Shown: positions 22,891-46,502, counted from the first letter of the stretch. The stretch: DNA of 64,000 nt from an uncultured Desulfobacterales bacterium (GCA_964440795.1 CAYTTQ010000005.1:1415-65414); one strand, 5' to 3'. Notes: generated from the letters alone by a model not told the origin. Translations and numbers: made by a program.

Positions 22891-22897
22891 CTATCTC

Positions 22898-23545: not shown

Positions 23546-23627
23546 CAGATGACTCCTTCATCGCCTCCGTTTTTCAGAAGGACGGCTAACCAGAAACCCT
23601 TTTATCGCCAAATCGGTCCACCAGTGT

Positions 23628-24242: not shown

Positions 24243-24253
24243 TATTTCTCCCC

Positions 24254-25805: not shown

Positions 25806-27090
25806 TTTCTGCCTCCGCGGCTTCCCTTAGGCCCAGTTCGCGCTTTGCCATCTGAATATACTGAAAAATTGGAATCCTGGACGGACACACATATGCACAC
25901 AAGCCGCATTCAATACAACATGCCAATTCATACATATCTCTGGCATCTTCGTAAAGGCTTGCTTCCAAAAAGCGAATGAGCATGTTTACCGGTATCTTAA
26001 CCGGACAGATCTTAATGCACTCTCCACAGTTGATGCAGGGATGATCCGCCAACAGCGGGCTTTCCTGCTGATCTTGTACCACCAGGCCGTCTGTTTGGGG
26101 CTCTACGGGCAGTTCGTCCGAGTAGGTAGCGTTCCCTCTCATCGGGCCACCCAAGACCAGCCGGTCGCGATCCTTGACGGTAATACCACAGGCCCCAAGC
26201 AGTGCTCGTAAGGGAGTCCCGATCCTGACTTTCAGATTGGTGGCCTTTCCGCCTTTCCTGACAACGCTGACCATTTTAGTGACGCACAGTCGGCCCGTGT
26301 CCACGCAGGCCCCCAAGGCGGCAACCGCTTCTGCGCTGATAAAGAACGCCCCGGCCTCCTCCGGTGTCTGACCTTCCGGTATCACGGTTCCCACAACGTC
26401 TTTCATAATCATGTGCGGTAGGCCGGACGGATACTCGACGCTCAAGGCCTTCGCCTCCGCACCGGTCGAAATCGCTTGTTGCACCATACCCTCGGGGACA
26501 GTGAGTAAAATGCGATCCACACCCGTCATATCTTTGAGCGCCTTAACTCCTGCCTTGACGGCGTCAAGCTCGTTGTGGATGATAATTTGATTGGCGGTCA
26601 AAAGCAAATCCTGGTCCTGGCCGCATATGACGATCATCCGTATTGAGGTGTTCGGATCGGCAAAGGTGCGGAAGGACGGGTTGCCCGGCAGATATTCAAA
26701 GAAGCGAAGGGCGGTGTCCAGTGAGGCGCCCCCCGTATATTCATCATCCCATTCGTCTTTTTCGTCAGCAGCGATGGTTATGGCGGTATACGATTGTTCA
26801 AATATGCCTCCGTAGGGATAGACTTCCCCGAAAGAACCGACATAGGGAAATAGACTGGAGATGGTCCCGGTTACGGAAGAAATGACATAGGTTGAGCTTT
26901 CGGCGGACTTACTCAATCTCTGGCCGGTTTTCACCTTGGCCCCGACCTCGAGATCCCCCCCCGCTTCGGGATTGTCGTCTCTCAACAGTAGGGTCACACT
27001 CTTCGGCACTTTAAGCTCTTGAACTTCATCCGGAACCACGTTGTAGTTCAGTTTCGGCCTCATAATTCCCAGAAACGGTCTTTTTATCAT
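25798..27090 (-). CDS. rnfC: Rnf complex subunit C-like, with a degenerate NADH/FMN-binding region
   Basis: Start MIKRPFLGIM at 27090; the listed 95-aa extension overlaps the cytochrome gene and was rejected. RnfC_N barrel and C-terminal 2x[4Fe-4S] (CINCGECIKICP, CIECGLCAYVCP) are present. The expected GxGGAGFP / ECEPY blocks read YLPGNPSFRTF / CGQDQDL. Confidence 0.85.
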   Translation of the reverse strand: MIKRPFLGIMRPKLNYNVVPDEVQELKVPKSVTLLLRDDNPEAGGDLEVGAKVKTGQRLSKSAESSTYVISSVTGTISSLFPYVGSFGEVYPYGGIFEQSYTAITIAADEKDEWDDEYTGGASLDTALRFFEYLPGNPSFRTFADPNTSIRMIVICGQDQDLLLTANQIIIHNELDAVKAGVKALKDMTGVDRILLTVPEGMVQQAISTGAEAKALSVEYPSGLPHMIMKDVVGTVIPEGQTPEEAGAFFISAEAVAALGACVDTGRLCVTKMVSVVRKGGKATNLKVRIGTPLRALLGACGITVKDRDRLVLGGPMRGNATYSDELPVEPQTDGLVVQDQQESPLLADHPCINCGECIKICPVKIPVNMLIRFLEASLYEDARDMYELACCIECGLCAYVCPSRIPIFQYIQMAKRELGLREAAEAENE

Positions 27091-27124
27091 AATACGATCC
27101 CCTGTGTTGGTATCCCTGTTGGCC

Positions 27125-27496
27125 TTAGTACTGCAAGTGGCATGTAGCGCATTCAACCGGACCGGCGCCGCTTTCTTCATGACAGCCCTGGCAATTGGTA
27201 TGGAAGGCATCCGATCGGGTGGGTTCGGTGTCCGCACCATGGCAGTAAGGTCCGCCACACCCCATGCCTCCGTCATCTTGCTCGTAGTGATGACAATCCT
27301 CGCAGTAAAAGCCGTAACCATCCTCGGACAAATGGGTTTGATGATCAAACAGGACCTTACCGGCACTTGTGTCAAATACCAGTCTTACCGGTTCATCGGG
27401 AACTTCCTGGGGAAACGATGCGTAACACACTACGCCGATAATGAGCAAGATGGCCGCCAGGCCATAAATAAACAACAGTTCCATCTTTGATGTCAT
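27125..27496 (-). CDS. Membrane-anchored tetraheme cytochrome c (c3-like)
   Basis: N-terminal hydrophobic anchor (LLFIYGLAAILLIIGVV). Four heme motifs: CEDCH, CGGPYCH (CX4CH), CQGCH, CATCH. First gene of the rnf operon. Confidence 0.8.
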   Translation of the reverse strand: MTSKMELLFIYGLAAILLIIGVVCYASFPQEVPDEPVRLVFDTSAGKVLFDHQTHLSEDGYGFYCEDCHHYEQDDGGMGCGGPYCHGADTEPTRSDAFHTNCQGCHEESGAGPVECATCHLQY

Positions 27497-29979: not shown

Positions 29980-30465
29980 CTACATCCCCAATAGCGTGCC
30001 GATTTCCGGATGCTTGCCGATTACTTTCAAGAATTGGGCCGTTCTGCGTTCCAGACGATTTTCCAAGATCCGTGCCGCCTTCTTCATGACCATATATCCC
30101 GTTTCTCGTTCCCGACCGAGAAATGCCGTCAGTTCCTGTCCGGAAAAAACGAACACTTCACTTGGCTCCGAGCAGACCGCGTAGGAGCTATGGGGCGCAT
30201 TCGGCAAAAACAGGGCCGACCATCCAAAGGAATATCCCGGTTTGATGGCGCCTACGGAGATGATGAAGTTCGGAGCAAGCTCTGACTCCAGCAATACTTT
30301 CCCCCGCTTTAGAGAGTAGAAGTTATCGGCCTCCATGCCGGGCTCGTAAATGATCTGCCGTTCTTCCATGGATTGTTCTTCCACCAGCGGAAGCAGCCGC
30401 TCCAGAAAATCGTCCGGCAAATCTTCAAACAGAATCACTTCTTTTAAGTTTTGTACAGAAGCCAT
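29980..30465 (-). CDS. Cyclic-nucleotide-binding domain protein without a DNA-binding domain
   Basis: Start MASVQNLKEVILFEDLPDDFL. cNMP-binding beta-barrel features (YSLKRGKV.., FGWSALF). 161 aa, no HTH. Follows the last mrp-like gene. Confidence 0.8.
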   Translation of the reverse strand: MASVQNLKEVILFEDLPDDFLERLLPLVEEQSMEERQIIYEPGMEADNFYSLKRGKVLLESELAPNFIISVGAIKPGYSFGWSALFLPNAPHSSYAVCSEPSEVFVFSGQELTAFLGRERETGYMVMKKAARILENRLERRTAQFLKVIGKHPEIGTLLGM

Positions 30466-30590: not shown

Positions 30591-32366
30591 TCACATCAAG
30601 AGGAAAACCAACACCAGAAAAATCGTGGCCACTGCCGCGCTGATGCCCACGGGCGCCGTACCCGTTTCCAGGGCCGCTCGCGTCCTGGCGATCTTGCGCT
30701 GCAACGCCTCGCCTTTTGTCCCGACGGCGGACCAGAGCGGAACCAAGGTTCCCAACGTTAAAATCTCGGGCAACCGCCTGGAAAGTCGACCCAGGACCCT
30801 AGGCACCCCCCGGGCGAAAAGGCGGTCTGACACACCGTTGATGCCGTTAAATACCTTGTCCGCTGCGTAATAGAATAGACGGCCACCCATCCGGTAAAAC
30901 CGGTCCACATCCAGGTTCACACACCGCTTCTCCGGCGGATAGACGCCCGCAAGCATCAGAAGAACAAAGGCCGCCGCCGCAAACAGAAGAAGTTGGGCCA
31001 TCCCCACTACGTGGGCGCCGGTGTAAGGGGCGAAATCCACCACCGGATAAGGCAACAGGTCATACAGCGGATAGGGATAAAGACCGATGGCAATGCACAA
31101 AAAGGCGGCGATCCCCATGGCAAAACGCATGTTGAGCGGTGCCTCTTTGGGCCGCATTCCGGAGTCGTGCCCGAAGAAGGCGAAATAGGGGACCTTGATA
31201 CCGGCGTGCTCCAGCACCCCAACGGAGGCGAACATCAACAGAAACCAGACCACCACCATGTGATGATTGCCCACCGCCGTTATGGTCATCGACTTGGTGA
31301 CGAATCCGCTCAGCAAGGGAAACCCGGATATGGATGCCGCAGCGATGATACAGCATGTCGCCGTGAAAGGCATCGTTCGGTACAGTCCGCCCAGAGCGGT
31401 GCAATTGATCTTGCCGGTTCGGTGGAGGACCGCCCCCATGGACATGAACAACAGGGCCTTGTAGATACAGTGGGCAAAGACGTGAGATACGGCACCGTTG
31501 ATGGCCATCTGTGTGCCGACGCCGATGCCGCACACCATATAACCGACCTGGTTGATCAGGCTGTAACTCAATACCCGTCGCAAGTTGTTTTCGATAACGG
31601 CAAAAAAGACCGGAAACACGGTCATGATGGCGCCTATCCAAATCAGGATTTCCGTGCCGGCAAACCCTCTGGCCAAGGTATAGACGGCTGTCTTGGTCGT
31701 ATAAACGCTCAAAAAAACCGTTCCCGTGGGAGTGGCTTCAGGATAGGCGTCAGGGAGCCACGCATGGAAAATCGGCCAAGCCGAGTTTATCCCGAAGCCC
31801 AGGAAGATCAATAGGGACGACGTCCCGTTCAACCCGATATGTCCAAATTCGATACTCCCCGTTTCTTTCAGGTGCAGCACGATTCCCGCCAAGAGCACCA
31901 GCCCGCCCACGGCGTGAACCAAAACGTAGCGATATCCCGCCCGGGTGGACTGAGTCGTCCGGCGGGACCAGATAAGAATGGCCGAACCGACGGTGAGCAT
32001 CTCCCAGAAGAGAAACAGTGAAAGGAGATCTCCTGCGAAAACGACACCCAGGGCGCTTCCCGAATAGATGAGCCCCGCCACGTGTTGCAGGTCGTCTTTG
32101 ACATGCAGGGCATAGAGTAAGGAGGTAAAAGCGATGATATGGTAGACATATCCAAAGAGGAGGCTCATCTTGTCCATTCTGCCGAAGACGATATCCTGGC
32201 CAAAGGCGGAAACGACGAAATGTGTGCCCTCGGGGATATGGATCAGGTTGAGGAAACCGATCACCGGCACAAGCAACATGAAGGCGCTTTTCCACTTGCC
32301 TTTGATCAGCGGAACCAGCAGGCCCCCGACAATGAATATGGCCGCCGGCGGTACGGTGCTAATCAT
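30591..32366 (-). CDS. Antiporter-like subunit (NuoL/MrpA/MrpD family) with a C-terminal amphipathic extension and terminal TM helix
   Basis: Proton_antipo_M-type body (LFLFWEMLTVGS..). The extra ~100-aa tail (RFYRMGGRLFYYAADKVFNG...GISAAVATIFLVLVFLL) recalls a NuoL-type lateral helix. The ATG overlaps the upstream stop (ATGATTAG). Confidence 0.85.
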   Translation of the reverse strand: MISTVPPAAIFIVGGLLVPLIKGKWKSAFMLLVPVIGFLNLIHIPEGTHFVVSAFGQDIVFGRMDKMSLLFGYVYHIIAFTSLLYALHVKDDLQHVAGLIYSGSALGVVFAGDLLSLFLFWEMLTVGSAILIWSRRTTQSTRAGYRYVLVHAVGGLVLLAGIVLHLKETGSIEFGHIGLNGTSSLLIFLGFGINSAWPIFHAWLPDAYPEATPTGTVFLSVYTTKTAVYTLARGFAGTEILIWIGAIMTVFPVFFAVIENNLRRVLSYSLINQVGYMVCGIGVGTQMAINGAVSHVFAHCIYKALLFMSMGAVLHRTGKINCTALGGLYRTMPFTATCCIIAAASISGFPLLSGFVTKSMTITAVGNHHMVVVWFLLMFASVGVLEHAGIKVPYFAFFGHDSGMRPKEAPLNMRFAMGIAAFLCIAIGLYPYPLYDLLPYPVVDFAPYTGAHVVGMAQLLLFAAAAFVLLMLAGVYPPEKRCVNLDVDRFYRMGGRLFYYAADKVFNGINGVSDRLFARGVPRVLGRLSRRLPEILTLGTLVPLWSAVGTKGEALQRKIARTRAALETGTAPVGISAAVATIFLVLVFLLM

Positions 32367-32619
32367 AGTAATCCTCTCGTCTCTCAACTATCGGCCGCAG
32401 AATGTATTTGGCCACCACCACCACGAATACGAAGGCGACAAAACCAAAAACCGCATAAAACTCGGGCCAGTTCTCCCACGGGAAATGGGCGTGCTTGTGA
32501 ATCACAAAATCGGCGATCAACAAGAGGGCGAGCACGGCCAAACAACATCCCATGATGATCTTCACGTTCCTCGGGTTGTCGAAAAAATAACCCTTTTCTT
32601 CAGATGTGTGCTGTGCCAT
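32359..32619 (-). CDS. Small two-TM membrane protein (86 aa), function unknown
   Basis: Two hydrophobic helices (IIMGCCLAVLALLLIADFVI, FYAVFGFVAFVFVVVVA). Tightly packed in the operon, with a GGGAGA RBS. Confidence 0.55.
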   Translation of the reverse strand: MAQHTSEEKGYFFDNPRNVKIIMGCCLAVLALLLIADFVIHKHAHFPWENWPEFYAVFGFVAFVFVVVVAKYILRPIVERREDYYD

Positions 32620-32639
32620 GCCCAGGTCTCCCGCTTCGC

Positions 32640-32786
32640 CTACAGGGTGGCGGCAAAGATCACCGCCAGGTATACGGCCCCGATGGCGGTTACCACAAAA
32701 AGGATCTTCTTGAAAGGCGGTACACCGTCATGCTGGAGTACCATTTTTCCTTCTATTTCATCACTTCTTTCGATCGTCATCGTCAT
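32640..32786 (-). CDS. Small single-TM protein (48 aa), function unknown
   Basis: The ATG overlaps the upstream stop (ATGA). One helix (ILFVVTAIGAVYLAVIFAATL). The longer listed ORF overlaps the mrpD-like gene and was trimmed. Confidence 0.45.
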   Translation of the reverse strand: MTMTIERSDEIEGKMVLQHDGVPPFKKILFVVTAIGAVYLAVIFAATL

Positions 32787-34264
32787 ATTCCCACAATCCG
32801 ATTCACCGTCATGGTGGCCAGCTCTAGAAAAGGCTGGGGATAAAACAACAGGGCGATGGAGATTATCGCTGTAATCACCAGCGGTACCACGCAAAAAGCC
32901 GGTGCCTCTTTTACTTTGTTCTCAAAAAGGGCGTCTTCGGGCTTACAAAAGAAGGCCTTGTAGACGATCGGCATAAAGTATGCGGCGTTCAGCAGCGAAC
33001 TGAGAAGTAACACCACCACGATGGCCCCTTGACCGGCTTCCAACGATCCCAACAGAAGATACCACTTACTCCAAAATCCCCCGCCCGGGGGAAGCCCCGT
33101 AATACTTAAGGCGGCAATAAAAAAAGCGGCCATCGTCACCGGCATTCTCCTGCCGATGCCGATCATCTCGCTGATGTTTTTCCGCCCGGTGGCCACGAAT
33201 ATCGCCCCGGCACAAAAGAAGAGGGTAATCTTCCCGAAGGCATGCATGGCGATATGGAGCATGCCCCCTGTCATCCCTTTCGGCGATAACAGGCCCACAC
33301 CGAGTACGATGTAAGACAGCTGGGCAATCGTCGAAAACGCCAAGAGCCGCTTAAGGTTATCTTGGGACAGCGCGATCAATGAACCGATGAGAATCGTCGC
33401 CGAGGCGGCCACGAGCAAAATCCAGTTCAGATTGAGGGAAAGCAACAGGTCTGTTCCGAAGACGCCCGTAACGACCCGCACTACGCTGAACACGCCGACC
33501 TTGACCACGGCTACCGCGTGCAGCAGGGCGCTGACCGGCGTAGGAGCCACCATGGCCGCAGGCAACCATGAATGGAATGGCATGATCGCCGCCTTGGCAA
33601 ACCCAAAAACCAGTAACACCAAGAGGAGGGCCATTAACCCTTTGGATCCCGTTCCCGCCAGGAACCCCTGCCGACCGAACTCGAGCGTGCCCGAAAGATC
33701 ATAGCAAATCAGCATTGCCGGCAAGACAAACCCGATGGACGTGCCCATAATGTACAACAGATACTTCCGACCGGAACGGCGGGCTTCCTCGTCTTGATGA
33801 TGGGTAACCAGGGGATAGGTAGCCAGGGAAAGCATTTCATAAAAGAGATACATGGTTAAAAGGTTGGCGGAAAAGGCGACACCGATGGTGGCGGACAGGG
33901 CAAGGGCAAAAAAGCAAAAATATCGCGTCTGACTGTGTTCGTTCTCCCCGCGCATGTATCCAATGGAATAAGCGGAAGTAATGATCCACAAAGATGAAGA
34001 AACCAGGGCAAAGAGCATTCCCAGGGAATCGACTCGAAACTGAATGGCCGCCCCCGGCAGGAACTCGGCCACGGTGTATACGATTTCCGTACCTTTTAGA
34101 ATGGTCGGAACCATCGACAACACGATCAGGAATTTTACGCCGGCGGCCGCAAAAGTCCAGGCTTCCCTCACATTCGGCGCCCTGCTCGACGCCAGGATGG
34201 GCGTCACCATCAAGGAAACCAAAACGGCGAGAAGCGGTTTTACGGATACGATGGTATCGGTCAC
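32783..34264 (-). CDS. mrpD: Antiporter-like subunit, MrpD/NuoM/N family (copy 2)
   Basis: 493 aa. LYLFYEMLSLATYPLV, HSWLPAAMVAPTPVSALLHAVAVVK motifs. The GTG start overlaps the upstream TAG. Confidence 0.88.
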   Translation of the reverse strand: MTDTIVSVKPLLAVLVSLMVTPILASSRAPNVREAWTFAAAGVKFLIVLSMVPTILKGTEIVYTVAEFLPGAAIQFRVDSLGMLFALVSSSLWIITSAYSIGYMRGENEHSQTRYFCFFALALSATIGVAFSANLLTMYLFYEMLSLATYPLVTHHQDEEARRSGRKYLLYIMGTSIGFVLPAMLICYDLSGTLEFGRQGFLAGTGSKGLMALLLVLLVFGFAKAAIMPFHSWLPAAMVAPTPVSALLHAVAVVKVGVFSVVRVVTGVFGTDLLLSLNLNWILLVAASATILIGSLIALSQDNLKRLLAFSTIAQLSYIVLGVGLLSPKGMTGGMLHIAMHAFGKITLFFCAGAIFVATGRKNISEMIGIGRRMPVTMAAFFIAALSITGLPPGGGFWSKWYLLLGSLEAGQGAIVVVLLLSSLLNAAYFMPIVYKAFFCKPEDALFENKVKEAPAFCVVPLVITAIISIALLFYPQPFLELATMTVNRIVGI

Positions 34265-35757
34265 TAGATGAGCCCCTTCGGTATGGCAATTCGAATGATG
34301 TGATCCACAATATCTCCCGTGTATAGGCCGACCAGAATGAGTCCGGCAGCTACGATCAACAGCGGAAGGACCATACTGAGCGGCGCTTCGTTCATCGGTT
34401 CGGGATGATGGTCGTGACCGTGATGGTCGGAAAAAGGCTCAAAATAGCCGATTTCGATGACCCGAAAGAAGAGCACAACACTCACCAGACTGCTGAACAG
34501 GAGCGCGACCATGAAGTGATACTGTCCGGATTGGATGGCCCCGGTAATAAGATACCATTTACTGAAGAAACCGCAGGTCGGTGGCACGCCGATAATGGAA
34601 ATGGCTCCAATGACGAATCCCCCCATGGTAAAGGGCATTTTCTTGAACAGCCCCTGGAGATTCTCGAAGTGGTGGCCCTTTTTCCGGTATACGATATTGC
34701 CTACAGCCAAAAAGACACACAGCGTCATGAGGGCATCGTTTACGATGTGCAGAATCGCCCCGGTCATTCCCGCCCGGTTTCCAAGCCAGGCACCCCCCAC
34801 CATGTACCCGACCTCGGCAACAATGATGTAGGTCAACATCTTCTTGAGACTCCGCTCCTTCAAGGCAAGGAAAGCGGCCACCACGATGGCGACGACGGCA
34901 AACCACACCACCGCCTTGCTGATGGCCAGCGTGGTGAAGGTGAAATCCGGGGTGAATACGGTCAGGATCAATCGAATCATGACATAGATCATCACCTTCG
35001 TGGCCAAAGGTGCGATGAGGCTGCTGGACGGAGAAGGTGCATGGGTATACGAATTGGGCAACCAGGCATGAAGCGGGAAAAAACCCATCTTCAACCAGAC
35101 CCCTACCATACAGATGACGAAGGCGGCCACCACGGCCTTGGACTCGTAAATGGACGGCAACCGTTCGGCGATGTCCACCATATTCAAGGACCCCGTCATG
35201 ATGTAGAGATAGCCCACGCCGAGCAGATAAAAGCAGGCCCCGATGGTTCCCATGTACAGGTAATTCAGGGTGGCCAGCGGTGCGCGGCCTTCTTCTCCCA
35301 TGGCCAGCAATCCATATCCGGTCAGTGCGGCGATTTCCAGGAGCACATAGAGGTTAAAGGCGTCCCCGGTGGCCACGATACCCAGCAATCCGGTAACCAT
35401 GAGAACGTACAGGGTGTAAAAGGCGCCTTGATTGTCGGGAAACTTCTGTTCGATGCTCTTTTTCGCCGGAATGAGGTTGGCCAGTGCCACGACCGAAACC
35501 ACCACGAGCACCAACGCATTCAGGTGATCGACATAATAAGCGATTCCCCACGGGGGGTCCCATCCCGCCAGCCGGTAAACGATGACGCCCTCGTTGATGA
35601 CCCGAAACAGGAGCCCGACGGCCGAAGCGGTGGCCGTCACCAGAGCCGCAAGTGCGATCGGAAAGCAGAGCCGCTTGTTCGCCCATCCGGCAGCGCTGAT
35701 CAGTAACGCGGACAGGAGGGGGACAACGACCACGAGTGCGGGATATTGTTGACTCAT
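34264..35757 (-). CDS. mrpD: Antiporter-like subunit, MrpD/NuoM/N family (copy 1)
   Basis: 497 aa. LYVLLEIAALTGY, HAWLPNSYTHAPSPSSSLIAPLATK motifs. ATGA overlap with mrpC. Confidence 0.88.
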   Translation of the reverse strand: MSQQYPALVVVVPLLSALLISAAGWANKRLCFPIALAALVTATASAVGLLFRVINEGVIVYRLAGWDPPWGIAYYVDHLNALVLVVVSVVALANLIPAKKSIEQKFPDNQGAFYTLYVLMVTGLLGIVATGDAFNLYVLLEIAALTGYGLLAMGEEGRAPLATLNYLYMGTIGACFYLLGVGYLYIMTGSLNMVDIAERLPSIYESKAVVAAFVICMVGVWLKMGFFPLHAWLPNSYTHAPSPSSSLIAPLATKVMIYVMIRLILTVFTPDFTFTTLAISKAVVWFAVVAIVVAAFLALKERSLKKMLTYIIVAEVGYMVGGAWLGNRAGMTGAILHIVNDALMTLCVFLAVGNIVYRKKGHHFENLQGLFKKMPFTMGGFVIGAISIIGVPPTCGFFSKWYLITGAIQSGQYHFMVALLFSSLVSVVLFFRVIEIGYFEPFSDHHGHDHHPEPMNEAPLSMVLPLLIVAAGLILVGLYTGDIVDHIIRIAIPKGLI

Positions 35758-36164
35758 TTCTTCCTTATCTGTGCCAGGATTTCATCTTCTTCGAGCGTGT
35801 TGTAGTGCTTGTACACCCGAAGGGCCAGGGCCAGCGCCACACCCAGCGTTGCCACTCCGACGACAATAGCTGTGAGCATGAGCACATGGGGCAAGGGATT
35901 CATGTAATCCGCCGCGTGGACCGCATGAGAACCGGCCCCGTGCGCCGCCGGTCCGTGACCATGTTCCAGAATCGGAATGGTGGCTCCTTTTTTGGCTCCT
36001 ATGGATACGTAAAAAAGGACGATCGCGGTCTGAAAGATATTCATGCCCAGGATCTTTTTCACCAGGTTATTTTTTGAAATGATCGCATAGAGGCCGATCA
36101 TCATCAGGGTAATGTAAATCCAGTAGTTATATTTTGCGACCACCAGTTCGAGAAAGTCGGGCAT
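35754..36164 (-). CDS. mrpC: MrpC/MnhC (NuoK-like) subunit
   Basis: NYWIYITLMMIGLYAIISKNNLVKKILGMNIFQTAIVLFYV signature. Confidence 0.85.
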   Translation of the reverse strand: MPDFLELVVAKYNYWIYITLMMIGLYAIISKNNLVKKILGMNIFQTAIVLFYVSIGAKKGATIPILEHGHGPAAHGAGSHAVHAADYMNPLPHVLMLTAIVVGVATLGVALALALRVYKHYNTLEEDEILAQIRKK

Positions 36165-36167
36165 GAT

Positions 36168-36998
36168 TTAGAGTCCCTCGTCGTATTTGCCCCTGGACGA
36201 GACATTGTTGTAAATCCAGACCATGGCCGTCGTCACCGCAATGGCCACACCGATTTCCACAATAAGGATGCCGTGAGATCGCGCCATCACGGGCCCCACC
36301 CTGAGCACCGGGGCGAGGGCACTGTAATCGAGAAAGTTGAGACCCAGCAAGAGACACAAGGCACCCGTACCCGCATACAGCAAGACTCCCATGGCACATA
36401 AGACCCCCACCACTTTTTCTCCGATTCGCCGGAGCTCCGTACGCAAATCGTGGGACATGGCCAAGACGATGATGCTCGCCCCTAAGATCACCCCGCCTTG
36501 AAACCCGCCCCCGGGGCTATGGTGACCGTGGGCGACCACGTACAGGGCGAAGATCTGGATAAAGGGAACCAAGATCCGGCATATGGTCTTGATGATGAGA
36601 TCGTGGGGAGTCCAGGAATCGTCGATCCGCTCAAAGTCATCGGAGGGCGGTATCTTTCCGCCTTCTTTGACTCGAACCGTCACCCCTGTCAGCACGTGCC
36701 TGTAGAGCCGTTCTTTGCGTTCGTCCTCTTTCAAGAACGTGCGCAAAATAAAGAAACAAGCCACGGCTGCGGAAAAGATCACCGCTGTTTCGAACATGGT
36801 ATCGAAGGTACGATAATCTGCCAGCACGGCGGTAACGATATTGGGAACGGAGGTTTCCTCCATGGTCTTTTCGATGAAATGGGGAGAAACGTGTGTGCTG
36901 GCGGGTGATTGGGGATCCCCCCAATCGGGAAAGTCCACCGCCGCATAGACCAAAAAAACGCCCGTTGTGAAAGCGATGACAAGACCTAGAAATTTCAA
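36168..36998 (-). CDS. mrpB: MnhB/MrpB-domain membrane subunit
   Basis: TTG start overlapping the upstream TGA (TTGA), with a GGAGG RBS. NIVTAVLADYRTFDT and ALYVVAHGHHSPGGGFQGG motifs typical of the MnhB domain. Confidence 0.8.
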   Translation of the reverse strand: MKFLGLVIAFTTGVFLVYAAVDFPDWGDPQSPASTHVSPHFIEKTMEETSVPNIVTAVLADYRTFDTMFETAVIFSAAVACFFILRTFLKEDERKERLYRHVLTGVTVRVKEGGKIPPSDDFERIDDSWTPHDLIIKTICRILVPFIQIFALYVVAHGHHSPGGGFQGGVILGASIIVLAMSHDLRTELRRIGEKVVGVLCAMGVLLYAGTGALCLLLGLNFLDYSALAPVLRVGPVMARSHGILIVEIGVAIAVTTAMVWIYNNVSSRGKYDEGL

Positions 36999-37240
36999 TC
37001 CTTGGTCCTCCTGGTGGTCCTGAAAACAGCCGCAACGAAGAAAACCGTGCTTACCCCGGCCCCGACCGAAGCCTCTGTAAAAGCCACATCCACCGCACCC
37101 ATGATGGTCCAAAGCAGACACATCATAAAACTGTACGAACCGAAAAGTATGGCGGCACCCAACAGATCCCTGACCATGAGCGACCCGATAGCGGCAATCA
37201 CCACCAAAGTAAGAATGGCCAAGTCAAGTTGCCAGATCAC
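36995..37240 (-). CDS. DUF4040-type small subunit (MrpA C-terminal / MbhD-like)
   Basis: 81 aa, three helices. AILFGSYSFMMCLLWTIMGAVDVAFTEASVGAG resembles DUF4040. Confidence 0.75.
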   Translation of the reverse strand: MIWQLDLAILTLVVIAAIGSLMVRDLLGAAILFGSYSFMMCLLWTIMGAVDVAFTEASVGAGVSTVFFVAAVFRTTRRTKD

Positions 37241-37243
37241 GGG

Positions 37244-37567
37244 CTACCTCCTCCTTTCCCCTTTGACCCACGGCTCCAGGCCCGCCCGGACACCGGCATC
37301 GACGATGGCGTGCGTGGCCGTAGGGCTGGCCAAGAAAACAAAAACGACGATCAAGAGAATCTTGATGCTGGTCAGCAAAGAACCCAAAGAAAAGTGATGC
37401 AGACCGAACAGGGCCAGAGCGGTCATCGACAACAGCAGACCCAGGGTATCCAGCTTTCCGGCGGGATGAAGTCTGGAATAAAAGTCCGGGAATCGCAGTA
37501 TACCGACGGCACCGCCGGTAAAAAAGAACAACCCGGCAAGTAGGAGAAAAATCACGATTACATCCAT
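37244..37567 (-). CDS. mrpG: MrpG/MnhG subunit
   Basis: GAVGILRFPDFYSRLHPAGKLDTLG signature. Confidence 0.85.
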   Translation of the reverse strand: MDVIVIFLLLAGLFFFTGGAVGILRFPDFYSRLHPAGKLDTLGLLLSMTALALFGLHHFSLGSLLTSIKILLIVVFVFLASPTATHAIVDAGVRAGLEPWVKGERRR

Positions 37568-37591
37568 TTTTGATCCCTCCGCGGCAAGGAT

Positions 37592-37870
37592 CTACGCCTC
37601 ATCGTACAATCCTTTGCGTTTCTGGAAATATCTGGAAGCCGCCAATACGGCGATGAAGTTCAACATGGCATAAGCGAGTGCAATGTCTACAAACATCTCC
37701 ACACGGTGATACATATACCCGATCAAAATCAGCAAAACAGTCGTCTTGCTTCCTATGGCGTTGACGCCGATCATCCGATCCGCCACTGTGGGACCGAAGA
37801 CCCCCCTGTAGAGGGACAAGATCATGAGAAAGGCCAGGTATAAGCCGGAAAACAAAAAGAACGTGTCCAT
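37592..37870 (-). CDS. mrpF: MrpF/MnhF subunit
   Basis: Start MDTFFLF (the listed extension was rejected). GPTVADRMIGVNAIGSKT signature. Confidence 0.8.
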   Translation of the reverse strand: MDTFFLFSGLYLAFLMILSLYRGVFGPTVADRMIGVNAIGSKTTVLLILIGYMYHRVEMFVDIALAYAMLNFIAVLAASRYFQKRKGLYDEA

Positions 37871-37871
37871 T

Positions 37872-38447
37872 TCAGACCTCGTTGAACGCCCTAGCCACCC
37901 GGGTTTCCATTTCTCCCGGCAGGGGACCCCCGGAGGCGGGATCGATGGCGTGGACCTTAAAGTCTCCGTCAACTGACACATAGACGGTAACTGTGCCCGG
38001 GGTGAGCGTAATCGAATTGGCAAATGTAACCAGCGCCAAATCCCTTTTGAGGTGACTGCGAAACTTAACAATCTTTGGGTCGATGAGTTCCATCATCCGG
38101 GGGTGAAATACCAGGTACGTAACATGGAAGCTCGCCTTAAAAACCTGTACCAACAGCCACGAAATGTACCGTATGAAACGCACCCACTGCGAAAAGCGGC
38201 TTTGTTGGGCACGGGGGGAAAAGAGCAGATCCGATGAGAGGTAGGCAACAATGGCACAGGAGATAAGACCCAAGCTCAAATGAAAGCCATCGAATTTTCC
38301 GGACAGAAGTATCCAGACGGCGAACATGATGACGAAGGTAAGTACAAAGGGCTCAAAATTGAGTCGTCTGGACGACGACTTCCCGCTTGTGCCGGTTTCT
38401 CCGGGAGCCTCCCGACTGATTCTATTTTCCGGATCTGGTCTGTCCAC
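37872..38447 (-). CDS. mrpE: MrpE/MnhE subunit with an N-terminal hydrophilic extension
   Basis: GTG start. FVIMFAVWILLSGKFDGFHLSLGLI and ITLTPGTV motifs. First gene downstream of the sigma-54 promoter. Confidence 0.8.
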   Translation of the reverse strand: MDRPDPENRISREAPGETGTSGKSSSRRLNFEPFVLTFVIMFAVWILLSGKFDGFHLSLGLISCAIVAYLSSDLLFSPRAQQSRFSQWVRFIRYISWLLVQVFKASFHVTYLVFHPRMMELIDPKIVKFRSHLKRDLALVTFANSITLTPGTVTVYVSVDGDFKVHAIDPASGGPLPGEMETRVARAFNEV

Positions 38448-38529: not shown

Positions 38530-38545
38530 AGCAAGTCATGTGCCA
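38530..38545 (-). promoter_or_regulatory. Sigma-54 (-24/-12) promoter for the mrp-like operon
   Basis: The minus strand reads TGGCAC-ATGAC-TTGCT, which fits TGGCAC-N5-TTGC(A/T). It lies ~80 nt upstream of the mrpE start, with a sigma-54 activator gene divergent from it. Confidence 0.72.
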
Positions 38546-38869: not shown

Positions 38870-39952
38870 ATGTGCCCTCATAGGGTCGCCCTGCACGACC
38901 GGATAGAACCGGATGTTTTCCCAGAGTTTGTCGTGGTCAGCGCGCACATGCGCGCTGTCATGAAAGCGGTTCAGCAGATCGCCCGCTTTGATGCCAACGT
39001 ATTGATATACGGGGAGTCGGGAACAGGGAAAGAACTGATGGCACGTATCGTGCACCAAAAGAGTGGGCGCAACGACAAACCTTTTGTCCCCGTAAATTGC
39101 GGCACGCTTTCGGGAGAATTGTTTGAAAGCAAGCTTTTCGGCCACGAGATGGGCGCCTTTACAGGAGCCACCAAACGCACAAAAGGCAGATTTGAACAGG
39201 CCCACCGGGGCACGCTTTTTCTCGATGAGGTTTCGGAAATCTCCCTGCCGAACCAGGCAAACTTTCTTCGTGTGCTGGAAGATGGGTGTTTTCGCAGGAT
39301 CGGAGGCGAGGCTCCCACACAGGTGGACGTACGGATCATCGCCGCAACAAACAAAAACCTGGTGGAATCGGTAGAGGCGGGACTCTTCAGGAAGGACCTT
39401 TACTATCGGCTACAGGTCATTCCCATCAACCTGTTGCCGTTGAGAAAAAGGAAAGAGGCTATCCCCCACTTGGCGGCATATTTTACGGAACGCTTTGCCA
39501 AAATATACCAGAAAGAAAAGATCACGCTCAGCAACGACGCCGTCGAACACTTGGTGAATTACGACTGGCCCGGCAACATCCGTCAACTCAAGAACCTGAT
39601 GGAACGCTTGTCCTTGATGGCCCCAGAGACATGGGTCACGCCGGAGGATTTTCCGGAAGAACTTACGTCGTCCGTCTCCCAACGGGAAGCGCGGGAGACC
39701 TCCTCGGCGGACCAACCGGAAGAAGCCGCCACCGGTTATCCCGTTCCCGGAGGCGTTGAGCCGCTGCGTACGGCCCGGCACCGAATTGAAAAAACCTTGA
39801 TTGTTCGCGCCTTAGAAATAACCAAAGGGAGGCGGGTCGCCGCAGCGGAACTATTGGAAATCAAGCCGCGCACGTTGAGACAGAAAATGAGTGATTATAA
39901 TATTAAGTTTCAACGGAAAAGGGCCACGGACACCGCGGTGAGTGATAGATGA
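38870..39952 (+). CDS. Sigma-54-dependent transcriptional activator with AAA+ and Fis-type HTH only (no N-terminal sensory/receiver domain)
   Basis: Walker A GESGTGKE begins ~aa 45. GAFTGA loop (GHEMGAFTGAT). C-terminal HTH (AAELLEIKPRTLRQKM). GGGAGG RBS. Confidence 0.9.
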   Translation: MCPHRVALHDRIEPDVFPEFVVVSAHMRAVMKAVQQIARFDANVLIYGESGTGKELMARIVHQKSGRNDKPFVPVNCGTLSGELFESKLFGHEMGAFTGATKRTKGRFEQAHRGTLFLDEVSEISLPNQANFLRVLEDGCFRRIGGEAPTQVDVRIIAATNKNLVESVEAGLFRKDLYYRLQVIPINLLPLRKRKEAIPHLAAYFTERFAKIYQKEKITLSNDAVEHLVNYDWPGNIRQLKNLMERLSLMAPETWVTPEDFPEELTSSVSQREARETSSADQPEEAATGYPVPGGVEPLRTARHRIEKTLIVRALEITKGRRVAAAELLEIKPRTLRQKMSDYNIKFQRKRATDTAVSDR

Positions 39953-40631: not shown

Positions 40632-41804
40632 TCAGATGGCGGGGAGGGCCACGATAAAGGTCGTCCCCTGACCTTCCCGGCTGTCGAACCCGATGGTTCC
40701 CCCCAGGTTATTGATAATGTTTTGGCAAATGGACAAGCCTAGGCCGGTTCCTTTTCCGGGAGGTTTCGTCGTATAAAAAAGGCTAAACACATCAGGCTGT
40801 ATGGCTTTCGGTATTCCCCCGCCGTTATCTTCAATACGTATTTCAATCTCAGAGTCGACACGTGCCGTCGTTAACTTAACATAGCCGCCGGTTTCCCGAT
40901 TTTCCGAAACCGCGTGAATCGCGTTGGTAATCAGATTGACAAACACCTGTTCCGACAGTACTGGATCGGATACGACGGAAAGCGGTGTTTCGGGGAAGTC
41001 AAATTCGACCTCGACACTGGCGTGTTTAAGTTCCGATCGCAACAGCTCCACGGTCTCTCGAAGTAGGGCATGGACATCCAGTTCAACCTTGGACGGCGCC
41101 GAATCCCGCACAAAATCGAGCAGCTTGTGAGTAATGTTTCGGCACCGCTTGGTCTGAGCGTTGATTTTGTGGACGGTATCCAGCAGCTCTTGACGATCCT
41201 CCGGTTTTAGCCCTTCGGTATCGCTGATTATTTCTTCAGCCCACCCGGAAGCCTCATTAATTATCGCCAGTGGATTGTTGATTTCATGGGCCAGGCCTGA
41301 AGCCATGCGACCCATTTCCGCCAAGCGGTCAATTTGCACCAAGTCTTCCTGAAGCTTTTTCCAATGCGTTACGTCCTGACAGACACCGATCGTGCCGACT
41401 CTATTGTTTTTACGGTTGATCAGTTCCATCAAACAGACATGGCAATCCACCGGCCGCCCGTCTTTATGGCGAAAGATCACGCCTGCACAACTGGCCTTGC
41501 CGTCCTTCTGACACTGCTCCATCAAGGCTTCAAAGGCGTCCGGATCTTGAGCCAAGTCTCGAACCGGTCGGCCGATAACCTCTTCCATGGTGTACCCCAG
41601 GGAGTTTTCCGCCCCCTTGCTGAAGGATACGACCAAACCGGTCACTTCCGTCATGAAAATCATGTCGGTGGAATTTTGTAAAACGGAATGGAGATATTTC
41701 CGGGTCTGGTCCAGCTCTACCTTATAGCTGGCAACCTCTCTGGCAAGCTTTCTTAATTCATCTGGTACCGAACTAGTCGATTCCATAGATTCTGCGTAGC
41801 TCAA
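40632..41804 (-). CDS. PAS-domain sensor histidine kinase
   Basis: PAS segment (STDMIFMTEVTGLVVSFSKGAENSLGY). H-box GLAHEINNPL. N/G boxes LITNAIHA, DNGGGIP, GTGLGLSI. Confidence 0.9.
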   Translation of the reverse strand: MSYAESMESTSSVPDELRKLAREVASYKVELDQTRKYLHSVLQNSTDMIFMTEVTGLVVSFSKGAENSLGYTMEEVIGRPVRDLAQDPDAFEALMEQCQKDGKASCAGVIFRHKDGRPVDCHVCLMELINRKNNRVGTIGVCQDVTHWKKLQEDLVQIDRLAEMGRMASGLAHEINNPLAIINEASGWAEEIISDTEGLKPEDRQELLDTVHKINAQTKRCRNITHKLLDFVRDSAPSKVELDVHALLRETVELLRSELKHASVEVEFDFPETPLSVVSDPVLSEQVFVNLITNAIHAVSENRETGGYVKLTTARVDSEIEIRIEDNGGGIPKAIQPDVFSLFYTTKPPGKGTGLGLSICQNIINNLGGTIGFDSREGQGTTFIVALPAI

Positions 41805-41816
41805 TCTTTGGCCCGA

Positions 41817-42302
41817 TCAGGGGGCCACAGCCTTTGTGGCCTGGAACACCTCTCCAATAAGGGCGTCTTTCAAGATTATTCCCACCACTGATTGTTCCGC
41901 AACCACGGGGAGCCAATCCGTGCCCTGCAAGTGCATCAGATGAACCGCCTCCGTTAAGGTACCGGTTTCGTGGATTACCCGCGTAACCGGAGACATGACA
42001 TCCGCGACGGCGTTACCGAAAACAGCCTCACATTCCTCCTGAAACTGGCCCTGCCAGAATATGGGGAGTTCATCCGCCGGCTCTCGGGAAGACTCCATGT
42101 GACTGAGAAGCGTTTCGGGCGACAACATCCCGAGAATCTCTTCTTTCTGATCGACCACCTCCACCACCAACAAAAAAGCGGGCAACCCCTGGTACTTTCT
42201 GGTTTTTAAAACCTTGACGGCATGGCCGACCTTTTCTTGGGGGGATATATGCGAAAAGGCTTCCAAAGAAAGCATTAAATCTTTTATACGCTTTTCCGCC
42301 AT
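41817..42302 (-). CDS. CBS-domain pair protein
   Basis: ATG at 42302 with GGGAGA RBS (the listed TTG at 42323 is also possible). Two CBS-like repeats. Co-oriented with, and 12 nt upstream of, the PAS kinase gene. Confidence 0.78.
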   Translation of the reverse strand: MAEKRIKDLMLSLEAFSHISPQEKVGHAVKVLKTRKYQGLPAFLLVVEVVDQKEEILGMLSPETLLSHMESSREPADELPIFWQGQFQEECEAVFGNAVADVMSPVTRVIHETGTLTEAVHLMHLQGTDWLPVVAEQSVVGIILKDALIGEVFQATKAVAP

Positions 42303-42362
42303 ATGGCGTCTCCCGTTACCCAAGCCTGAATGATGGAGGCTCCCTCGCTACAGTGAGGACTA

Positions 42363-42378
42363 AGCAAGCCACGTGCCA
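42363..42378 (-). promoter_or_regulatory. Sigma-54 (-24/-12) promoter for the CBS/PAS-kinase operon
   Basis: The minus strand reads TGGCAC-GTGGC-TTGCT. It is identical to the 38530 promoter at 14 of 16 positions and lies ~60 nt upstream of the CBS gene ATG. Confidence 0.7.
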
Positions 42379-42604: not shown

Positions 42605-44698
42605 TCACGCCGGTTTTGGCGGTTCAGGGGGCTTATTTATCAGAAGCCGCAACCCGCAACGCAGACAGCGATTCGCTTCAGACCGAGCGGTCTCTTCGTC
42701 AAAAACGGCTTCCACTTCAGGAAATGACGGACGTATTCTTTGATCGATGGGGATGGTCTGCACCTTCGCTCTGGCCAGCGCCGAAAAGTCGTCAACGGTC
42801 CCCAAGCAGCCGTCCGGCGTTTCGATGCGCGCAATGGGCTCAAATATCTCTCCGGTTCCACCCAAGTACTTGTCAATGTCCACAGCCGCCGCCTGTCCCT
42901 GCTTTATCGCTCCCACCACCGTGGCGGGACCGGTTACGGCATCTCCCCCGGCAAAGAGACCGGGCCGCTTACAAGACGATGCCCCGCCCCCTTCTGTTCG
43001 TATTCGTCCCCGATCATCCGTGTCCGCACAAAGGCTTGCGGGTATTTCCGAACGCTGCCCGATCGCCATAATCAAATAGTCGAGTTCCAACCCGAACCGA
43101 GACCCTTCCACAGGAATCGGCTTTCGTCGGCCACTGGCATCCGGACTCCCCAATTCCATATGTATACAGTCGACGTTGATTTTACCGTTCGACTGCGTAA
43201 CCGCCACCGGTGCGGTAAGATAACGGAAAGCCACACCTTCTTCCTGGGCCGCGCCTATCTCATGGGCAAATGCGGGCATTTCTTCACGGGTGCGCCGATA
43301 CAAAAGGGTCACATTCGTCACCCCGATTCTGAGCAGACTCCGAGACACATCCACCGCTACATTGCCCCCACCGACCACGGCAACGGATTGTCCCAATTCA
43401 ACGTTTTCCCCTAAATTGATCTGATAGAGCACGTCAATGCCGTCGAGCACACGAGGAGAGTCACCGCCGGGAATATTCATGTGGACACCCTTGGGGGCAC
43501 CGGGGGCCAAAAAAACCGCATCCGCCCCCTCCTGAAAGAGACGGTCCACCGATTCGATTTTAGTATTCGTTCTTATGTCGACGCCCAATTCGGTGATGGC
43601 TTGAATCTCGCAATCCAACGCCTCATCGGGCAACCGATATGGCGGAATACCCGCTCGCATCATCCCGCCCGCTTTGGGGCCCATTTCATAGACGACGATG
43701 TCGTGTCCTTTTTTTCTTAAAAACCATGCAGCCGTCAACCCGGCCGGACCACTTCCGACAATGGCTACGTGCTTCCCGGTATCCGGGCTCACGGTTATCT
43801 TGTCCTTCCAATCGCCGGAATCCGTCTCGGCCACATATCGCTTCAGATCCTTGATGCAGATGGCCTCATTGACTTCACGTCGGCGGCAGACGTCCTCACA
43901 CGGATGTGGGCACACACATCCCAACGACAAGGGGAACGGCACCTTTTCCCGAATGACATTCAACGCATCTTGATACCGTTGCCCGGCGATCAGGTTGACA
44001 TACCGGGGCACATCAATACCGGCGGGACAGGCCACCCGACAAGGCACCAGGGTGTTTTCACGATTTTGGGCATCTACCGGCTGTTTTTCCCGCAAAGCCC
44101 CGGTCGGACACACTTCCACACATGCCCCACAAAAACGGCACACCGTTTCCCGCAAGGGCCGATCATAACTTGTAGCCACATAACTTTTAATGCCCCGATT
44201 GGCCAGGCCGATGGCGCTGATTCCCCGAATCTCTTTACAAGCCCGATGACAACGTCCACAGAGAATACACAAATTAAGGTCCCGAATGAACAGGGGGTCA
44301 TCTTCGTGTACGGGAACCTGCTTTCGTTCGGGAACAAAGCCGGGTAGTACATCTTTAAGACCGATATAATCGACGACCTTCTTGAACTGGGTTCCTTCGC
44401 GCAGCTCGTCTTCGGGACATTCCGTGAGGAGCAACCATATCAGGTCCTGTCGCAGTTGCCTGAGTTTTTCCGTATCCGTTCTAACGATCATCCCCTCCGT
44501 GGCCTGAACGGTGCACGAGGGCGGCAAGCCTCTCATTCCGTCGATTTCCACGACACAGAGCCGACACGCACCCAACGGCTCCAAGTCCGGATGGTAACAT
44601 AAATTGGGAATATAGATGCCTGCACCGAGACATGCCTCCAGGACGGTGGCACCGGCTTCAGCTTGAATATCTTTGCCGTCTACATTGATGGTAACCAT
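42605..44698 (-). CDS. [2Fe-2S]/[4Fe-4S] N-terminal module fused to a GltD/NfnB-type FAD/NAD(P)H oxidoreductase (Bfu 'A'-type subunit, StnC/NfnC-like)
   Basis: The MVTINVDGKDIQAEAGATVLEAC..CRLCVVEI 2Fe-2S fold resembles NuoG/HydA N-termini. Fe-S Cys clusters follow. Then CRVACPAGIDVPRYV..VCPHPCEDVCRR, VAIVGSGPAGLTAA, VAVVGGGNVAVD. Confidence 0.85.
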   Translation of the reverse strand: MVTINVDGKDIQAEAGATVLEACLGAGIYIPNLCYHPDLEPLGACRLCVVEIDGMRGLPPSCTVQATEGMIVRTDTEKLRQLRQDLIWLLLTECPEDELREGTQFKKVVDYIGLKDVLPGFVPERKQVPVHEDDPLFIRDLNLCILCGRCHRACKEIRGISAIGLANRGIKSYVATSYDRPLRETVCRFCGACVEVCPTGALREKQPVDAQNRENTLVPCRVACPAGIDVPRYVNLIAGQRYQDALNVIREKVPFPLSLGCVCPHPCEDVCRRREVNEAICIKDLKRYVAETDSGDWKDKITVSPDTGKHVAIVGSGPAGLTAAWFLRKKGHDIVVYEMGPKAGGMMRAGIPPYRLPDEALDCEIQAITELGVDIRTNTKIESVDRLFQEGADAVFLAPGAPKGVHMNIPGGDSPRVLDGIDVLYQINLGENVELGQSVAVVGGGNVAVDVSRSLLRIGVTNVTLLYRRTREEMPAFAHEIGAAQEEGVAFRYLTAPVAVTQSNGKINVDCIHMELGSPDASGRRKPIPVEGSRFGLELDYLIMAIGQRSEIPASLCADTDDRGRIRTEGGGASSCKRPGLFAGGDAVTGPATVVGAIKQGQAAAVDIDKYLGGTGEIFEPIARIETPDGCLGTVDDFSALARAKVQTIPIDQRIRPSFPEVEAVFDEETARSEANRCLRCGLRLLINKPPEPPKPA

Positions 44699-44710
44699 TT
44701 TTAAATTTCC

Positions 44711-46465: not shown

Positions 46466-46502
46466 TCACATATCCTCTTTCAATTGCGTATTTCCGTCGC
46501 AA

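Follow-up and report, generated by a model that had tools for sequence, protein, structure and literature searches.

A probable stand-alone group 3 Mrp-type antiporter cluster with three antiporter-like subunits and two small conserved membrane proteins in an uncultured Desulfobacterales bacterium

We analyzed a stretch of 64,000 nucleotides (nt) from an uncultured Desulfobacterales bacterium (GCA_964440795.1, CAYTTQ010000005.1:1415-65414; the whole stretch is hereafter called the window), and found that a cluster of 11 genes on its minus strand, at positions 30591-38447, probably specifies a secondary cation/proton antiporter (CPA3) of the stand-alone, group 3 Mrp type. An earlier reading of the same DNA, made from the sequence alone (hereafter, the sequence-only reading), had offered two options for this cluster, an Mrp antiporter variant or the membrane arm of a respiratory complex with its peripheral partner encoded elsewhere. 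The first option is now the better supported: all Mrp families are present in the cluster, the gene order is that of group 3, and no redox module is attached. The genes are co-directional and tightly packed, and a six-frame list of open reading frames (ORFs) agreed with an independent gene call, which was available for the identical public contig (Logan assembly of SRR7048225, locus L081). The genes are given below in their order of reading, with protein lengths in amino acids (aa) and transmembrane helices abbreviated as TM.

37872-38447, minus strand: MrpE/MnhE-like subunit; 191 aa; GTG start preceded by a GGAGGG Shine-Dalgarno sequence; Pfam MNHE, 3.4e-33
37592-37870, minus strand: MrpF-like subunit; 92 aa; Pfam MrpF_PhaF; carries Asn37
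37244-37567, minus strand: MrpG/MnhG-like subunit; 107 aa; Pfam PhaG_MnhG_YufB, 4.1e-23; TIGR01300, 70.2 bits (cutoff 63.1)
36995-37240, minus strand: B1, an MbhD/DUF4040 protein; 81 aa; Pfam MbhD, 2.8e-19; corresponds to TM17-19 of the MrpA C-terminal domain
36168-36998, minus strand: B2, a fusion of MbhE and MnhB; 276 aa; TTG start; Pfam MbhE and MnhB; corresponds to MrpA TM20-21 plus MrpB
35754-36164, minus strand: MrpC/NuoK-like subunit; 136 aa; Pfam Oxidored_q2
34264-35757, minus strand: D1, an MrpD/MbsH-type antiporter-like subunit; 497 aa; Pfam Proton_antipo_M
32783-34264, minus strand: D2, an extra antiporter-like subunit; 493 aa; Pfam Proton_antipo_M and Proton_antipo_N; lacks a C-terminal extension
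32640-32786, minus strand: s48, a single-TM protein; 48 aa; no Pfam or NCBIfam family; called as a gene of its own in L081
32359-32619, minus strand: s86, a two-TM hairpin protein; 86 aa; no Pfam or NCBIfam family; called as a gene of its own in L081
30591-32366, minus strand: D3, a distal subunit of the MrpA-N/MbsH'/NuoL class; 591 aa; Pfam Proton_antipo_M; reads as 598 aa from an upstream TTG

The spacing of the 11 genes is operon-like. Neighboring genes overlap by 1-8 nt at five of the ten junctions and are separated by gaps of 1-24 nt at the other five; the start of s48 overlaps the stop of D2 by 4 nt, and the stop of s86 overlaps the start of D3 by 8 nt. The gene content and order given by the sequence-only reading were borne out by the ORF list, the gene call and Pfam, as were its three antiporter-like subunits with a Proton_antipo_M domain (Pfam), while its description of nearly all junctions as overlapping stop and start codons applies to half of them. 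Group 3 Mrp systems are defined by the absence of an intact mrpA, the presence of one or several mrpD genes and an irregular gene order, for example EFGBB'CD (PMC8415708, PMC5703873). The cluster agrees with this definition in that it contains three D-type genes, no MrpA-like protein of ~800 aa, and the order E-F-G-B1-B2-C-D-D-x-x-D; the layout with E first and MrpA split, to which the sequence-only reading had drawn attention, is that of group 3 in the literature. All of the Mrp parts (MrpA-N, MrpA-C, B, C, D, E, F and G) are encoded in this one cluster according to Pfam, and the NCBIfam matches of its proteins were all to Mrp/Mnh subunit models. When the subunits are compared one by one, the cluster corresponds to a canonical Mrp in which MrpA is split into three genes and to which a contiguous extra block, D2-s48-s86, is added. 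D3 represents the N-terminal antiporter-like domain of MrpA with its lateral helix, B1 represents TM17-19, and the N-terminal part of B2 represents TM20-21; MrpB is found in the C-terminal part of B2, and MrpC, MrpD (D1), MrpE, MrpF and MrpG in separate genes.

A scan with D3 of one genome per species identified 269 relatives, and we fetched 80 loci, from which the further counts are drawn. When the 11 proteins of the window were searched against these loci by tblastn, the order E-F-G-B1-B2-C-D1-D2-(s48)-s86-D3 was observed in essentially all loci of sufficient length. The carriers belong to no fewer than eight phyla of bacteria (Desulfobacterota, Verrucomicrobiota, Alpha-, Beta- and Gammaproteobacteria, Acidobacteriota, Gemmatimonadota, Planctomycetota, Myxococcota and Calditrichota). 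Many of them are marine or saline taxa, and freshwater or wastewater taxa (Accumulibacter, Ramlibacter and Propionivibrio) are also included. The surroundings of the cluster were not similarly conserved. We clustered 1822 flanking ORFs from the 80 loci and found no neighbor conserved across phyla, so that the survey of relatives proposed with the sequence-only reading yielded no common partner; conservation of the flanks was limited to synteny within clades (Longimicrobiales) and to one Desulfobacterota-specific gene for a cNMP-binding protein. Hydrogenase, Nuo Q-module, formate dehydrogenase and NuoH/MbhM-like genes were found neither in the cluster nor in the flanks of the 80 loci, in agreement with the earlier statement that no hydrogenase, Nuo Q-module or formate dehydrogenase is attached. 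In the rest of the 64 kb window, no hydrogenase, Nuo Q-module, formate dehydrogenase or NuoH-like gene was found either, except for a degraded remnant of a [NiFe] large subunit 10 kb away. Distant homologues of s86 led to three more loci, which contained the same cluster in unrelated surroundings, again with no NuoH/MbhM or NuoB/NuoD-type genes.

The part corresponding to MrpA-C and MrpB is split or fused according to lineage, as observed in clade B (loci L015-L079), L084 and L086. It consists of MbhD followed by the MbhE-MnhB fusion in the window, of three separate genes for MbhD, MbhE and MnhB in many Proteobacteria and Gemmatimonadota, of an MbhD-MbhE fusion with a separate MnhB in L084, and of one 328-aa protein containing all three in L086.

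We compared the three antiporter-like subunits with each other and with chains of known structure. The best matches in the PDB were MbsH (209 bits), MbhH (173) and MrpD (167-171) for D1; MbhH (161), NdhF (151), NuoL (148) and MrpA (147) for D2; and Dietzia MrpA (116), MbsH' (114) and MbhH (113) for D3. D2 scored 657 bits against NF006236, below the cutoff of 663, and D3 scored 730.7 bits (cutoff 564) against NF009310 (PRK12668, an equivalog named 'Na(+)/H(+) antiporter subunit D'), with a match covering the full length of D3 including its tail (profile positions 2-583 of 584). Because D1, D2 and D3 are 27-30% identical to each other, they are old paralogues. The charged residues of D1 (E141, K223, K254, H337 and K400) were invariant in 66/66 members, those of D2 (E143, K224, K255, H337, H341, K345 and K400) were conserved in 72-73 of 73, and D3 residues E122, K225, H295, K303 and K358 were invariant across the family. 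All three subunits thus keep the canonical Glu of TM5, Lys of TM8, His of TM11 and Lys of TM12, and D1 and D2 also keep the Lys of TM7, where D3 of the window has Asn194. Judged by their invariant residues, all three modules look competent.

The AlphaFold2 model of D3 contains a core of 14 TM helices, TM15 (residues 450-472), a continuous helix of 61 residues (487-547), a short helix (553-568) and TM16 (573-590). The long helix is amphipathic, with a hydrophobic moment of 0.5-0.8, compared with 0.1-0.2 for the TM segments. In a Foldseek search, the model was most similar to MrpA of B. subtilis, B. pseudofirmus and A. flavithermus, followed by NdhF, MbsH' and NuoL, with >600 columns aligned. 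On the basis of the model, the amphipathic helix and these matches, we assigned D3 to the MrpA-N/NuoL class of distal subunits with a lateral helix, which supports the earlier suggestion that the last subunit supplies a lateral helix of the NuoL/MrpA type.

The 86-aa protein s86 was found by tblastn at the same position in about 75 of the 80 loci, with 35-65% identity and with invariant motifs (D..NV-TM1-H[KR]H..WE..F..GF-TM2-K..LR..R.EDYY). It has 250 close homologues, all unnamed or 'hypothetical' and without a Pfam family, and at E <= 1e-3 its relatives span 1688 clusters of a 50% representative library; the best 150 of these 1688 are all 70-170 aa long, with no fusions among them. Distant members are again encoded between the second and third antiporter-like genes. 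The AlphaFold2 model is a helical hairpin (H16-41 and H52-74; predicted local distance difference test score (pLDDT), 77). Searches of s86 against PDB chains, with a single sequence as well as with a profile, gave chance matches only (E 0.17 or worse), indicating that it has no sequence relative among MbhI, MrpA and the accessory chains of complex I. The sequence-only reading had likened the position of the two mini-proteins to that of the small helper subunits in Mbh-type complexes; this parallel is not supported, since neither s86 nor s48 is similar in sequence to MbhI or to any chain in the solved structures of Mrp, MBH, MBS and complex I. We also considered s86 as a remnant of the NuoL-type TM15/TM16 extension or as a homologue of the D subunits, and rejected this because the hhalign probabilities were below 1%. 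Long ORFs in L032, L034, L048 and L055 that suggested natural fusions of D2 and s86 proved to be stop-free alternative frames of genomes with a high content of guanine and cytosine. From its distribution, s86 can be regarded as a hallmark subunit of this Mrp type.

The 48-aa protein s48 exhibited a narrower distribution. Its single TM helix is preceded by the motif E-L-x-H-[ED]-x-[VI]-P-[GP]-[YF], and an ORF with this motif was present in the gap between D2 and s86 of every locus of what we call clade A. This clade comprises the Desulfobacterota, the majority of the Verrucomicrobiota and a small number of other loci, so that over half of the family lacks s48. A profile hidden Markov model (HMM) built from 19 copies gave a single match in each of 24 loci, in every case between D2 and s86 and including loci on which it had not been trained, and matched nothing else among 27,062 six-frame segments. 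A search of a large protein database returned 2 relatives, a number subject to the word-index limits on a 48-aa query, and the conservation of s48 is read from the fetched loci. The distribution of s48 follows that of a substitution in D3. At the position of the TM7 Lys, D3 of the window has Asn194, and among 79 loci this position is Asn in 25 and Lys in 54. Of the 24 loci with Asn194 besides the window, 23 contain s48 (weakly in L080, E = 3e-4), and the remaining one, L009, has too little upstream sequence; none of the 54 loci with Lys contains it. The presence of s48 therefore co-occurs exactly with the Lys-to-Asn change in TM7 of D3, in clade A, where the tail of D3 is also about 25-30 residues longer. 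His-rich C-terminal tails were observed on the s48 proteins of Verrucomicrobia.

Both mini-ORFs are conserved genes rather than chance ORFs, and the cluster was not found to match a well-characterized group subunit for subunit with its mini-ORFs unconserved, the outcome named with the sequence-only reading as refuting it. We accordingly consider it hardly credible that s48 and s86 are chance ORFs or spacers in a plain nine-subunit Mrp with an extra MrpD. Such a view could draw on the lack of a Pfam or NCBIfam model and of a PDB relative for either protein, on the absence of s48 from a large part of the family, and on the small number of its database relatives. However, it would have to accommodate the positional conservation and the many representative clusters of s86, the single HMM match of s48 per clade-A locus in a constant gap, and the observations that both ORFs overlap their neighbors through stop and start codons and that both were called by an independent gene finder.

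It is also very improbable that the 11 genes encode the membrane arm of a pump that is driven by redox reactions and resembles complex I, MBH or MBS, with its peripheral module encoded elsewhere, for example by the Rnf or NuoEF-GltD genes of the window, as proposed in the sequence-only reading. To our knowledge, every redox-coupled relative needs a connecting subunit of the NuoH/MbhM type together with subunits of the NuoB/D type, and no gene of these types was found in the cluster, elsewhere in the window or in the flanks of the 80 loci. The redox arm is disfavored by the lack of connecting and catalytic subunits at every occurrence of the cluster, although three antiporter-like subunits with a lateral helix equal the count of complex I (PMC8165549), a group 3 Mrp module is embedded in both MBH and MBS (PMC8415708), and Rnf and NuoE/NuoF/GltD-like genes lie within 12 kb. 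Furthermore, there is no conserved redox neighbor, other phyla have unrelated genes in the flanks (e.g. fucosidase, ankyrin and housekeeping genes), the Rnf cluster is complete with its own membrane subunits, and the NuoEF-GltD-like sets lack any membrane anchor.

We then return to the stand-alone group 3 Mrp antiporter, against which several points must be counted. The position corresponding to MrpF Asp35 was Asn in all 53 of 53 family members examined; the canonical His37/His40 pair of MrpC is absent, with Thr46 and Val49 at the aligned positions and Thr or hydrophobic residues family-wide; D3 of the clade of the window lacks the TM7 Lys that is present in all five aligned relatives (MrpA of Dietzia and A. 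flavithermus, MbsH', MbsH and MbhH); confidence in the D3 model is only moderate (mean pLDDT 67; predicted template modeling score (pTM) 0.63); and our literature search found no functional or structural study of this cluster type. In the window, Asn37 of MrpF aligns with a conserved Asp of MbsB, MbhB and two bacterial MrpF proteins (6u8y_B, 6cfw_B, 6z16_F and 7qru_F). In A. flavithermus, this residue, D35f, has been described as highly conserved and as lying on the Na+ path (PMC7419157), and its equivalent in B. pseudofirmus is Asp38 (PMC9568556). Since the MrpF Asp, the MrpC His pair and the D3 TM7 Lys are all replaced, the cation path and the distal module may differ from the canonical model.

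These replacements bear on the possibility that the assembly is of the Mrp type but has another ion or direction, namely that it exchanges K+/H+ or Ca2+/H+ or interconverts sodium- and proton-motive force together with Rnf and the pyrophosphatase. The neutral substitutions on the proposed Na+ entry path are family-wide, and Gln45 of MrpC, beside the lost His pair, was invariant in 62/62 members (aligned to MbsG, MbhG and MrpC). Mrp members with K+ or Ca2+ specificity have been documented (PMC5703873, PMC7419157); Rnf and an H+/Na+-pyrophosphatase are encoded nearby, and the carriers from freshwater and wastewater would also fit. However, the three essential carboxylates of MrpA-C and the TM5 Glu of D1, which form the proposed cation-coupling site, are invariant. 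Asp51 and Glu56 of B1 (the latter equivalent to E706a) were found in 59/59 members (aligned to MbsD and MbhD), and D66 and E70 of B2 (equivalent to D792a and E796a) wherever the region could be aligned; the MrpB-like residues H157, F166 and E248 of B2 were likewise invariant in 54/54 (B2 was aligned to MbsE, MbhF, MbhE, MrpB and the C-terminus of Dietzia MrpA). In addition, many carriers are marine or saline, and ion specificity cannot be assigned from sequence alone. We therefore regard another ion or direction as rather unlikely, and the reading as a stand-alone group 3 Mrp antiporter remains the one that we prefer.

The loop between TM2 and TM3 of MrpC (residues 67-85) is His-rich in the window (EHGHGPAAHGAGSHAVHAAD) and is greatly enlarged to long His/Asp-rich inserts in some lineages (L012 and L058). 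This loop and the tails of the verrucomicrobial s48 proteins might represent a surface feature that binds metals or protons.

We compared the cluster with known systems. The stand-alone group 3 Mrp of Pyrococcus furiosus (mrpEFGBB'CD; PMC8415708) shares with it the lack of an intact mrpA, the order E-F-G-B-B'-C-D, the division of the MrpA C-terminal domain into MbhD/MbhE-type pieces and the lack of a redox module. It has one antiporter-like subunit, whereas the present cluster has three, and the subunit of the MrpA-N/NuoL class, s86 and s48 are extra here. The canonical Mrp of groups 1 and 2 (Anoxybacillus flavithermus, 6z16; Bacillus pseudofirmus, 7qru; Dietzia, 7d3u) shares all functional parts, the lateral helix, the Lys and Glu residues of the antiporter-like subunits and the MrpA-C carboxylates (equivalents of E706, D792 and E796). 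In contrast to it, the cluster has another gene order, a split MrpA and the additional D2, s86 and s48, as well as Asn for MrpF Asp35, no His37/His40 in MrpC and, in clade A, Asn for the TM7 Lys of D3.

Similarities to MBS (6u8y) and MBH (6cfw) of P. furiosus were also observed. For the small subunits of the cluster, the best PDB matches were MbsB, D, E and G; MbsH is the closest relative of D1, and D3 is similar to MbsH' in its length of about 600 aa and its C-terminal TM15-16 extension. However, the cluster lacks the subunits MbsM/MbhM, J, K, L and N and any relative of MbhI, it has three antiporter-like subunits compared with two in MBS and one in MBH, and the Asp of MbsB/MbhB is Asn. In complex I/NDH-1, the membrane arm (NuoL, M, N, K and J) resembles the cluster in having three antiporter-like subunits in series, NuoK- and NuoJ-like parts, and a distal subunit with TM15, a lateral helix and TM16. 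It differs in that the cluster lacks NuoH, NuoA and the peripheral arm, retains the MrpE/F/G/B cation module that is absent from complex I, and has Lys rather than Glu at TM12 in all three modules. The lateral helix HL is reported to scale with the number of antiporter-like subunits, namely one in MBH, two in MBS and Mrp, and three in complex I (PMC8165549).

Clusters of similar layout have been annotated in several genomes. Mnh/MrpEFGBCD1D2D3 with 11 locus tags is annotated in Verruconatronum alginivorum (PMC13274419), a group 3 Mrp whose mrpD is followed by two NuoM/L-like genes in Ca. Nitrospira alkalitolerans (PMC7784846), and MrpEFGBBCDD, with a partly identical layout, in a Solemya symbiont (PMC4287430); an MrpBCDEFG set is enriched in Gemmatimonadota of saline habitats (PMC9426454). 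The layouts in Verruconatronum, Nitrospira and the Solemya symbiont appear to be the same E-F-G-B-C-D-D-D and are known there from annotation only; those annotation reports describe neither the small subunits nor the residue substitutions nor the division into two clades. The three-D layout as an Mrp Na+/H+ antiporter is therefore already known. The feature is ordinary in kind, that is, a group 3 Mrp, and belongs to a widespread subclass that has three modules, mini-subunits of its own and systematic changes of residues; its architecture is already annotated elsewhere.

From the gene content, the conservation, the key residues and the fold class of D3, we infer a subunit arrangement, an ion, a stoichiometry and a physiological role. 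By homology with solved Mrp and MBS structures, the subunits would be arranged as E-G-F-B-(B1/B2)-C, followed by D1, D2 and D3 in a row. The lateral helix of D3 would run back over D2, and possibly D1, with TM16 as its anchor, and would clamp the three modules together. For the two small proteins, s86 and s48, a place next to D2/D3 is probable, as suggested by gene adjacency, translational coupling and co-occurrence only. Protons would enter through the three antiporter-like modules with their Lys and Glu residues and drive the export of a cation, most likely Na+, through the B/C/F/G module. For canonical Mrp, a ratio of H+ to cation of ~2:1 has been proposed (PMC9568556, PMC7419157); with three proton modules instead of two, the ratio here would probably be higher. 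The complex may serve Na+ and pH homeostasis, or convert Na+ and H+ gradients into each other, in an anaerobe equipped with Rnf and a membrane pyrophosphatase as well.

Regulatory elements and genes were identified on both sides of the cluster, as follows.

38530-38545, minus strand: sigma-54 -24/-12 element, TGGCACATGACTTGCT; exact consensus, 83 nt upstream of the mrpE GTG start
38870-39952, plus strand: sigma-54 activator gene; divergent, adjoining the element; no N-terminal sensory domain
42363-42378, minus strand: second perfect sigma-54 -24/-12 site; upstream of genes for a CBS-domain protein (41817-42323) and a histidine kinase (40632-41804)
29980-30465, minus strand: stand-alone cNMP-binding-domain protein, possibly a 12th gene of the cluster; 161 aa; Pfam cNMP_binding; 125 nt downstream of D3

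The two sigma-54 sites are the only exact matches to the consensus in the window, and the background expectation for such an element is 0.004 per 430 nt. The two closest relatives (L001 and L002) have the identical 16-mer upstream of mrpE, and L056 has a similar element there. On this basis, transcription of the cluster in this organism is probably dependent on sigma-54. Regulation by sigma-54 throughout the family was considered and rejected: since the element was found in only 3 of 52 loci, it is lineage-specific. Downstream of D3, no terminator-like site was found before the gene for the cNMP-binding protein, and no DNA-binding domain was detected in the 161-aa product. This gene immediately follows D3 in nine loci of Desulfobacterota and in no other phylum, and its product is possibly part of the operon or of the complex.

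In the window, the cluster is bordered by regulators (the sigma-54 activator, receiver proteins, histidine kinases and the CBS-domain protein), and a complete Rnf cluster and a set of NuoE-like, NuoF-like and Fe-S-GltD-like genes are found farther out, both within 12 kb; the other large ORFs are housekeeping or unrelated genes. The Rnf cluster (20797-27496, minus strand) encodes an unusual RnfB of 697 aa, in which the RnfB Fe-S domain is joined to an NAD(P)H flavoprotein similar to GltD and dihydropyrimidine dehydrogenase (Fer4_20 and Pyr_redox_2), and a gene for cytochrome c3 lies ahead of rnfC, at about 27125-27496. Immediately downstream of Rnf, at 19630-20587 on the minus strand, two short ORFs match only fragments of the [NiFe]-hydrogenase large subunit (NiFeSe_Hases positions 1-74 and 157-192 of 508) and overlap a pseudouridine synthase gene on the plus strand (19135-20118); this region looks like a decayed hydrogenase gene. 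The trio at 42605-46973 on the minus strand, composed of a NuoE-like (2Fe-2S thioredoxin-like) protein, a NuoF-like protein and a Fer2-Fer4-GltD-like flavoprotein without a membrane subunit, resembles soluble NAD(P)H-linked or bifurcating oxidoreductases and not the arm of complex I. A membrane-bound H+/Na+-translocating pyrophosphatase (Pfam H_PPase, 866 bits) is encoded at 16309-18351 on the plus strand; the pyrophosphatase, Rnf and Mrp represent three ion-motive systems within 22 kb.

Mrp antiporters are viewed as the forerunners from which complex I, MBH and MBS derived their ion-pumping membrane arms, and all of the solved stand-alone Mrp structures known to us contain two antiporter-like subunits. 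An Mrp with three modules in hundreds of species thus represents a natural experiment on how the number of modules relates to stoichiometry, on what is needed of the lateral helix and its anchor when a module is added, and on which residues of the Na+ path are required. For annotation, the conserved 86-aa 'hypothetical' protein, together with the 48-aa protein in one clade, can be assigned to this Mrp type. We tentatively raise the further idea, which at present seems rather unlikely, that the family is a distinct and widespread subclass of Mrp, with a three-pump arm, dedicated small subunits and a rewired cation entry, that differs from canonical Mrp in its stoichiometry or its ion. If this were true, these clusters could be a living analogue of an Mrp stage at which the third antiporter-like subunit had been acquired already, either earlier than complex I or in parallel with it.

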